DNA from: a virus
Strand: one strand, 5' to 3'
Virus genome (UHGV): UHGV-1300783
Length of the DNA stretch: 14,040 nt
The notes under the pieces were generated by a model, which was not told where the DNA came from, did no database searches, and saw only the letters and a list, made by a program, of their open reading frames with translations. This document shows positions 2,965-3,288 of the stretch, in pieces (the first letter of the stretch is position 1; the number at the start of each line of letters is the position of its first letter). A program made the translations under genes and the position numbers.

Positions 2965-3288
2965 ATGGAACTCGTAAACCTCAAAACCGGCACTGACAGC
3001 TACCAGGATGAGAGCGGAGAAACCAGAACTCGCGATGAATACCCGTGGGGGCTGTGCATCACTCTTAATAACGACACATTGAATAAGCTGAAGGCGCAAC
3101 CTCAGGGCGTCGGAACAGAAGTGATGATAACTGCAAAGGCTGTTATTCGAGGCCTGTCTGCCAGAGAAACTGACGATGGTGTTAATCGCAGCGCCGATCT
3201 GCAGATCACTGATATGGCAATCGCTCCTGTTTCCGGTGATGTAGAAAAATCAGCGGCTGAAACTCTGTACGGCAATGGGGGTGAGTAA
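2965..3288 (+). CDS. hypothetical protein, about 107 aa, carrying a scaffold-like C-terminal motif (KSAAETLYG)
   Basis: Track ORF 2959..3288 begins at GTG; ATG at 2965 with AGGAG at 2955-2959 is the likelier start. Its stop overlaps the next gene's start (TAATG). C-terminal peptide resembles the scaffold C-terminus (see findings). Confidence 0.55.
   Translation: MELVNLKTGTDSYQDESGETRTRDEYPWGLCITLNNDTLNKLKAQPQGVGTEVMITAKAVIRGLSARETDDGVNRSADLQITDMAIAPVSGDVEKSAAETLYGNGGE

Follow-up and report, generated by a model that had tools for sequence, protein, structure and literature searches.

What does it mean that a small head-module protein of a podophage ends in the same peptide as the phage's own scaffold-like protein? 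The question is raised by a stretch of virus genome UHGV-1300783 (14,040 nucleotides; hereafter, the window), the 14 kb head-to-internal-protein module of an Escherichia podophage that resembles phiV10 and TL-2011b (epsilon15-like, genus Uetakevirus). Several isolates and prophages are ~98% identical to the window. One of the two proteins is a scaffold-like homologue of epsilon15 gp6 and BPP-1 Bbp18, the other a 107-aa member of the gp10-like family. A nine-residue block lies close to the C-terminus of both, and we lean, by a modest degree, towards reading it as a portable C-terminal procapsid-targeting tag that mimics the docking end of the scaffold. The features on which the argument turns are given below (ORF, open reading frame; pLDDT, the predicted local distance difference test score of the AlphaFold2, or AF2, models):

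371-1078, + strand: scaffold-like protein, 235 aa; no Pfam family, PHROG 458 'protease'
1046-1072, + strand: scaffold tag RSAAEVLYG, then K and stop codon; read from the sequence
2955-2959, + strand: AGGAG ahead of the gp10-like ORF
2965-3288, + strand: gp10-like protein, 107 aa, with ATG at 2965 and stop codon at 3286-3288; Pfam PF21628, 1e-51
3229-3246, + strand: gp10-like linker PVSGDV..., residues 89-94; pLDDT <50 at residues 92-96, variable in alignments
3247-3273, + strand: gp10-like tag KSAAETLYG, then NGGE and stop codon; read from the sequence

A nine-residue peptide shared by the scaffold-like and gp10-like proteins

The scaffold-like protein terminates in RSAAEVLYGK (longer tails ...GGNEGQRSAAEVLYGK and ...GQRSAAEVLYGK) and the gp10-like protein in KSAAETLYGNGGE (longer tails ...SGDVEKSAAETLYGNGGE and ...EKSAAETLYGNGGE). 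RSAAEVLYG and KSAAETLYG agree at seven of nine residues and differ conservatively at the remaining two, so the shared block that a first-pass annotation of the window had pointed out is real, with exact motif coordinates of 1046-1072 and 3247-3273. The same annotation had described the likeness as one of peptide rather than of DNA, and here, too, our analysis agrees with it. The DNA of the two tags matches at 15 of 27 bases, just three of the seven identical residues use the same codon, and the serine codon is agt in one tag and tca in the other; a recent DNA duplication is therefore ruled out. As for chance, which the annotation had wanted checked against shuffled sequences, the two 20-residue tails have an ungapped BLOSUM62 score of 38, beyond anything seen in 20,000 shuffles of the gp10-like protein (mean 14, maximum 37; p≤5e-5). 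Among the 66 tail pairs that can be drawn from the 12 proteins of the window, the second-best score is 22.

We followed the peptide through 160 IMG/VR loci and 12 annotated phage regions with head genes. The capsid protein alignment served as the anchor of this search; the gp10-like alignment has no conserved stretch of sufficient length. The pattern [KPR]-S-A-A-x-x-[LM]-[YF]-[PG] occurs in every one of the 106 distinct scaffold tails, 1 to 14 residues from the end, and K-[SD]-A-A-[DE]-x-L-Y-G is found in the last 16 residues of 128 of 137 full-length gp10-like representatives. The aromatic residue is Tyr in 115 of these 128 and Phe in 13, and the tag Tyr (Tyr102) is invariant in both gp10-like alignments. 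The motif is thus present in orthologues of both proteins, a point on which the first-pass annotation had staked its proposal, and these orthologues come from phages of Alpha-, Beta- and Gammaproteobacteria. Certain gp10-like proteins have two tags in tandem, for example ...RATALYGAGSEGSRINNLSNALYGGG (locus L005, 6007-6375; proteins P0126 and P0208).

Scaffold and gp10-like tails co-vary

Aligning the two tails across related phages, as had been suggested for the window, reveals that they change together. Representative pairs are given one per line:

Window: scaffold tail SAAEVLYGK; gp10-like tail SAAETLYGNGGE; cores EVLYG / ETLYG
Epsilon15: scaffold tail DLISAFYPKK; gp10-like tail ELKDAFYPDGEDD; cores SAFYP / DAFYP
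BPP-1: scaffold tail DARRLYAASNMNP; gp10-like tail SAAQRLYGASSMSA; cores ARRLYAASNMNP / AQRLYGASSMSA
BcepC6B: scaffold tail ARAAKLYDKS; gp10-like tail QRAAKFYANTPTT; cores RAAKLY / RAAKFY
CP2: scaffold tail WNRMYPDM; gp10-like tail YARMYADDPSMKD; cores NRMYP / ARMYA
L061 lineage: scaffold tail KSAADVLFG; gp10-like tail KTAADVLFDGGE; cores AADVLFG / AADVLFD
L086: scaffold tail DARSLYPNSDLK; gp10-like tail DARSLYPNSTLI; DARSLYPNS in both

In the L061 lineage the tag Tyr has become Phe in both proteins. To put a number on the trend we used permutation tests with one representative per lineage and 100,000 permutations. Matched tail pairs score 29.1 versus 20.9 ± 1.6 for permuted pairs (15 lineages), with no permutation as high (0/100,000, p≤1e-5); when a second clade is added, matched pairs score 26.9 versus 20.6 ± 1.3 (20 lineages), again with 0/100,000 as high. 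Gene conversion was considered as the source of the likeness and rejected: identical residues with degenerate codons (n=220) use the same codon in 36% of cases, which is what codon usage predicts, and the two L086 tails share 10 identical residues with just two identical codons. Permutation and codon analyses together document concerted evolution of the peptide within a genome, as expected of a targeting peptide. We propose that the tails co-vary because all tags must fit one receptor.

A further match, EALYGVNNG at 9859-9885 within the gp15-like protein, had been mentioned by the first-pass annotation as possibly due to chance, and that suspicion is borne out. In relatives with a scaffold tail ...VLFG, the gp15-like site reads PEAAYG or PESLYP; epsilon15 gp15 and BPP-1 Bbp11 have no alignable counterpart of the segment, and epsilon15 gp15 has no such motif anywhere. 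Being neither conserved nor co-varying, this candidate third copy was rejected as chance.

Both tags are predicted to sit on flexible tethers

The scaffold role of the ORF at 371-1078 is one that we infer from gene position and architecture: the gene lies directly upstream of the gene for the major capsid protein (MCP), and the AF2 model is all-helical plus disordered, as is typical of scaffolding proteins. After a disordered N-terminal region, of low confidence up to residue ~90, come a helical domain (~100-214), a linker with pLDDT <50 (216-225) and a short terminal helix (228-233). The helical domain is conserved (GLGNHPxL[VI]xxFxxxGKAxSED) and stands just upstream of the tag. The protein is not among the chains of the capsid structures 3J4U, 3J40 and 8CJZ. 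Databases label it 'protease', 'peptidase' or 'endoprotease' (PHROG 458 and NCBI homologues). A search for a peptidase found no Pfam or NCBIfam family, no PDB sequence match and no fold match (the NCBIfam search of the head-module proteins returned zero matches), and the prohead protease assignment, with support from neither domain nor fold, looks wrong.

The AF2 model of the gp10-like protein (pLDDT 77.7) has a beta-hairpin-rich folded body over residues ~1-88, with a long beta-hairpin (53-69/72-88) and small N-terminal elements, and a flexible tail that bears the tag. The last 17 residues have a mean pLDDT of ~48 and include a short helix over SAAETL. In both proteins, then, the linker has pLDDT <50, the terminal helix is short, and the tag helix is not packed against the protein's own body, so that both models show a short tag helix and Tyr-Gly on a flexible tether. 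A fold search of BFVD returned homologues only.

At the other end of the scaffold, the N-terminus MNLFERLLxRRLCNEQ is almost invariant in enterobacterial relatives (window 371-420; L001, L003, L004, L056 and L057), and the ~70 residues after it are hypervariable and of low complexity; a related basic start is found in L065 and BcepC6B. Judged by its conservation, the N-terminus looks like a second functional end.

The gp10-like protein is very probably not the capsid staple

By sequence, the 107-aa protein is clearly a member of the epsilon15 gp10 family: it matches PF21628 'Gp10-like' (E = 1.1e-51, profile positions 1-98 of 98) and PHROG 825, and, alone among PDB chains, epsilon15 gp10 (3J40_N, 2e-21). 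The family has 3424 representatives (clusters at 50% identity), and NCBI names it 'capsid staple protein'. This name goes back to the 3J40 cryo-EM model, the authors of which have since re-analysed their assignment. The AlphaFold2 model of the 111-aa gp10 is unlike the density, the assignment is 'likely incorrect', and a 130-aa protein fits the staple density instead (PMC9207676). That 130-aa protein is epsilon15 gp8, a homologue of Bbp16. The capsids of BPP-1 (3.5 Å) and PhiXacm4-11 (3.2 Å) and PDB entry 8CJZ consist solely of the capsid protein and a Bbp16-like jellyroll. We conclude that the surface staple of this phage group is the Bbp16-like protein (window 2131-2568), not the gp10-like one.

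The fold agrees. A Foldseek search of the PDB (E≤1e-3) with the gp10-like AF2 model returned no match, the deposited 3J40 gp10 included, and the model is not a beta-jellyroll; nor, in the solved structures, does the family account for ordered outer-surface density of the kind that staple and cement proteins contribute. We discount staple as a role for the gp10-like protein: the density belongs to a Bbp16 homologue, the fold is no jellyroll, and the gene is optional (see below). The names 'capsid staple protein' and 'Major coat protein-like' look wrong for the family because they are based on the withdrawn assignment. The sole positive virion datum for the family is a reported proteomic identification of gp10 in purified epsilon15 virions, termed 'putative' in the re-analysis, according to which gp10 is nonetheless not the surface density (PMC9207676).

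In two metagenome-derived proteins, P0021 and P0117, segments of ClpP protease and of a gp10-like protein are joined, one the reverse of the other in order. The ClpP part of P0117 continues straight into QITDMAI, and the gp10-like part of P0021 terminates with QITDMAI; the two look like assembly chimeras via a short common stretch, not true fusions.

The gp10-like gene is an optional cassette

Prophages that are nearly identical differ at the gp10-like gene (window 2915-3290) by a clean indel the size of a gene (L016, L026, L044 and L057 are without it). In loci that lack the gene, the upstream hairpin and ribosome-binding site are kept and run directly into the next, adaptor-like gene. The gp10-like gene is present in 47 of 76 related loci with wide flanks and missing from the other 29, as well as from the isolated phage EC.W1-9 (L091). 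Of 5426 complete E. coli genomes, 519 have the gp10-like region, and five of 40 evenly sampled matches show a 317-bp gap where the gp10-like gene is missing. The gene is dispensable; it is not found wherever the capsid protein is, as a staple or cement gene would be.

Genomes without the gp10-like gene (the 29 loci and EC.W1-9) retain the scaffold tag. Therefore, the receptor of the tag is not gp10 but some component that all these phages have, namely the coat, the portal or the scaffold. A Bbp19-like protein occurs in 117 of 124 loci and is missing from the BcepC6B lineage.

Unrelated small proteins carry the tag of their own genome

The peptide is not confined to the pair found in the window. 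In the L065 clade, small ORFs between the portal and scaffold genes terminate in their own genome's tag (...GKSAAKKLYPNQK, ...KSPAEKLYPNQGKKK, ...KSPAKTLYPNHKGD and ...AASLYPNLPTQE); there are 24 tagged small ORFs on the coding strand versus 3.9 expected, and the best score is 37 versus a null maximum of 23. In Limnohabitans phage DC33 a 55-aa ORF adjoining the gp10-like gene ends in ...ESAAEKLYGKDKDKK. The tagged small ORFs of the L065 clade and DC33 fall into at least four unrelated families (phrog_16160, 20603, 2423 and 16028), the PHROG profiles of which stop ahead of the tag, and a fifth group has no profile match. A short peptide shared by otherwise unrelated proteins is therefore seen in the window pair and in at least four further families. 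Tagged ORFs are separated from noise solely by scoring against each genome's own scaffold core: a loose-motif scan of all ORF tails gave 0.43% versus a background of 0.41%, with no overall excess.

From that loose scan comes a Cys-rich 62-aa ORF beside the portal gene of L054 (1307-1525), which ends in ...KAQVLYG in a genome whose scaffold ends in ...ENVLYPSMT. It may be a further tagged small protein, with the reservation that the scan matched background overall. The DC33 record (PQ492659.1; L007 and L092) has a ~127-nt terminal duplication with the scaffold gene broken across the ends, and its taxonomy line reads Inoviridae despite a podophage-like genome.

A proposed docking peptide for the assembling capsid

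How might such a peptide work? In epsilon15/BPP-1-like podophages the scaffold tail runs from a flexible linker through a short amphipathic helix to an aromatic 'hook', the consensus being S-A-A-x-x-[LM]-Y-[GP]. We suggest that this end would dock at a conserved site within the assembling shell, most likely on the inner face or the N-arm of the MCP. The gp10-like protein, with the same peptide and the same type of linker, would be drawn into the procapsid beside the scaffold; other small basic head-module proteins of certain relatives would be loaded likewise, as internal (minor or cargo) head proteins. With a single receptor for all tags, the tags would drift jointly within a genome. The MCP appears to us the most likely receptor. 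The first-pass annotation had proposed that the two proteins share a docking partner, with the small protein being either packaged or competing with the scaffold. The shared partner is consistent with a motif conserved in both families, with the co-varying tails and with codons that bear no trace of gene conversion; the support is partial, for coat binding by the extreme C-terminus of this scaffold is an assumption, the membership of the small protein in the epsilon15 gp10 family had gone unnoticed, and the match extends beyond two proteins. The presence of the tag on several unrelated small proteins favours a 'cargo tag' over a 'competitor of scaffold'.

Several observations weigh against this proposal. 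Binding by the tag and the internal location of its carriers are inferred, and so is the coat protein as receptor. Co-variation is uneven: the rank of a scaffold tail's own partner runs from 1 to 19 of 20, being first in five of 20 cases and below tenth in four. Mutual information between tail variants (Y/F; G/P/A/D) and MCP columns gives many ties that reflect shared ancestry. The capsids 3J4U, 8CJZ and PhiXacm4-11 (a phage whose gp10-like protein is gp21) lack ordered gp10-like density, and sodium dodecyl sulfate polyacrylamide gels of BPP-1 and PhiXacm4-11 have MCP and cement protein as their only major bands, so any packaged gp10-like protein must be sub-stoichiometric or disordered. Finally, it could be the conserved helical domain ahead of the tag that really binds the coat, with the tag in another role, and coat, scaffold core and portal are all candidates for the tag's receptor.

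The scaffold core is the main rival to the coat as receptor. The scaffold tail would in that case bind the helical domain of a neighbouring scaffold in self-assembly, and tagged proteins would co-assemble. The comparative evidence fits this arrangement equally well, a highly conserved helical domain lies directly upstream of the scaffold tag, and the capsid-targeting sequence of the T4 internal proteins offers a precedent. We nonetheless regard it as unlikely: in the AF2 model the tail is unpacked on its own helical domain and of low pLDDT (a monomer model being compatible with binding in trans), and in the nearest structural precedent a C-terminal helix-and-hook binds the coat N-arm. A portal or Bbp19-like partner, with the tag nucleating or positioning proteins at the portal vertex, seems more doubtful to us. 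It would explain why the gp10-like gene and other tagged small genes adjoin the portal gene in most lineages, and the Bbp19-like protein is widespread (117/124 loci); the BcepC6B lineage and a few other loci are tagged with no detectable Bbp19-like gene, however, and a scaffold with hundreds of copies is unlikely to reserve a conserved end for 12 portal subunits.

We give low credence to the tag being a removal or quality-control signal, read by a host or phage protease or chaperone that would act on the scaffold and on small proteins regulated with it, instead of a docking peptide. Scaffolds do need removal at maturation, and the database labels of 'protease' and 'peptidase' would suit such a role. 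However, the scaffold has no detectable protease domain or fold, the module lacks an evident gene for a prohead protease, and the capsid proteins of BPP-1 are uncleaved; moreover, the motif lies 1 to 14 residues from the end, unlike degrons that need a free carboxyl terminus, and tandem double tags suit avidity more than cleavage. That the gp10-like protein is, as annotated, an external staple or decoration protein whose likeness to the scaffold tail is incidental strikes us as very improbable. This idea has in its favour that gp10 was modelled in the staple density of 3J40, that Pfam and NCBI names follow that entry, and that a 2025 paper restates the claim. Against it stand the re-analysis by the authors themselves, in which the 111-aa sequence misfits the density and the 130-aa Bbp16 homologue fits, the three other capsid structures with MCP and Bbp16-like protein only, an AF2 model that is no jellyroll and unlike 3J40, the absence of the gene from 29/76 related loci and EC.W1-9, and the fact that an incidental match would not co-vary.

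Precedents

The closest precedent for the epsilon15-like tag is the C-terminal 'helix-and-hook' (RIIK motif) that the phage 80alpha scaffold gp46 and SaPI1 CpmB have in common and that binds the capsid protein N-arm (PMC5644958, eLife 2017). There, too, a small non-scaffold protein carries a scaffold C-terminus (~16 residues) for the same site on an HK97-fold coat, the remainder of the two proteins is unrelated, and the shared terminus limits the evolution of all partners. The differences are that the SaPI1 mimic comes from a parasite and redirects capsid size, whereas gp10-like is the phage's own widespread optional gene; that the motif is RIIK rather than SAAxxLYG, with several further tagged families in the epsilon15-like group; and that binding was solved by cryo-EM for 80alpha and is a proposal for the epsilon15-like tag.

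The T4 internal proteins IPI-III have a common capsid-targeting leader sequence and are later injected with the DNA, and the Dar system of P1 is comparable. The dispensability and modularity of the tagged epsilon15-like proteins match these systems, but in T4 the signal stands at the N-terminus, directs proteins to the scaffolding core and is removed by the prohead protease, whereas the epsilon15-like tag stands at the C-terminus, occurs on the scaffold as well and has no evident protease to go with it. The scaffold of the podophage P22 has a C-terminal coat-binding element and, like the scaffold here, a disordered N-terminal part; that element, however, is a folded helix-turn-helix of ~40 residues that is not known to be common to other proteins, unlike the ~9-residue linear motif that follows the helical domain here. 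Encapsulin cargo-loading peptides are short and C-terminal, sit on flexible linkers, are carried by unrelated cargo and bind the inner face of an HK97-fold shell. Encapsulins differ in being non-viral, in having neither a scaffold nor packaged DNA, and in their unrelated motif sequences. As for epsilon15 gp10 as deposited in 3J40, it belongs to the same sequence family as the 107-aa protein of the window, but the staple label fails and the predicted fold of the family differs from the deposited one.

The literature that we searched contains no description of this shared tag in this phage group; the principle is known. What appears to be new is a C-terminal tag on a scaffold and on the phage's own optional proteins, among them a very large family whose textbook role is a misassignment.

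Implications

A wider generalisation, which we put forward tentatively and hold to be somewhat short of an even chance, is that a portable system for cargo loading in general exists in epsilon15/BPP-1-like podophages. A scaffold-derived tag of ~9 residues (S-A-A-x-x-L-Y-G/P) would be sufficient to load any protein, with the gp10-like family (>3,400 clusters) and several small basic families as its clients, at least some of them delivered to the host with the DNA. If so, foreign proteins could be loaded with the same tag, which would offer a simple means of packaging them in T=7 podophage capsids, and a terminal targeting peptide would be common to a phage's own scaffold and its own cargo. The docking reading would pinpoint which end of the scaffold is functional in a phage group for which no procapsid has yet been solved, and it predicts that temperate enterobacterial phages have a class of small, internal and possibly injected proteins. 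It also proposes a concrete function for a very common orphan family (3424 clusters, and a prophage gene in about one in ten complete E. coli genomes), the only published role of which, the withdrawn staple, still drives Pfam and NCBI annotation.

The surrounding module

The genes of this module are all on the + strand. Besides those listed above, its features are:

72-368, + strand: Bbp19-like protein; Pfam
1087-2079, + strand: MCP, HK97 fold, of the epsilon15 gp7 / BPP-1 Bbp17 family; Pfam GP7, 5e-149
2131-2568, + strand: Bbp16-like jellyroll cement (decoration) protein; Pfam Bbp16, 4e-46
2579-2914, + strand: gp9-like gene, 111-aa protein; no Pfam family, PHROG 590, function not assigned there
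2933-2952, + strand: hairpin GGGGC-TTCG-GCCCC, then TTTATT; from reading the sequence
Downstream of 3288, + strand: tail and internal virion proteins

The MCP matches PDB chains 3J4U_A (3e-128), 8CJZ_Y (2e-87) and 3J40_A (6e-85), and the Bbp16-like protein matches 3J4U_H, a 'cementing protein' (3e-26), and 8CJZ_B, a 'capsid decoration protein' (3e-21). An aromatic-Pro segment closes the Bbp16-like cement proteins of L086 (8992-9468), L071 (2064-2546) and the window (...GQKFYPGGFAVL; in the window, ...NTPYPIRSKVTG); scored against the scaffold tag, this end comes at the top of the null range, and the two are probably not related.

The GC-rich hairpin at 2933-2952, between the gp9-like and gp10-like genes, resembles a terminator. 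The epsilon15 record has rho-independent terminators annotated at the same place, and the hairpin is kept in relatives without the gp10-like gene; a consensus terminator scan of the window did not flag it.

Farther downstream, the internal protein with gp15-like lytic transglycosylase (7406-10308) looks like two ORFs owing to a run of 100 Ns at 9276-9375, bordered by a 55-nt direct duplication (GCGCTGGTTGTCCCGATGGC...AATAATCCGG); the run is an assembly gap artefact. Just past the gene for a 1129-aa internal protein lies a 112-aa ORF on the minus strand (13698-14036), rich in Asn, Ile and Lys, a composition that suggests AT-rich foreign DNA and a moron-like insert.

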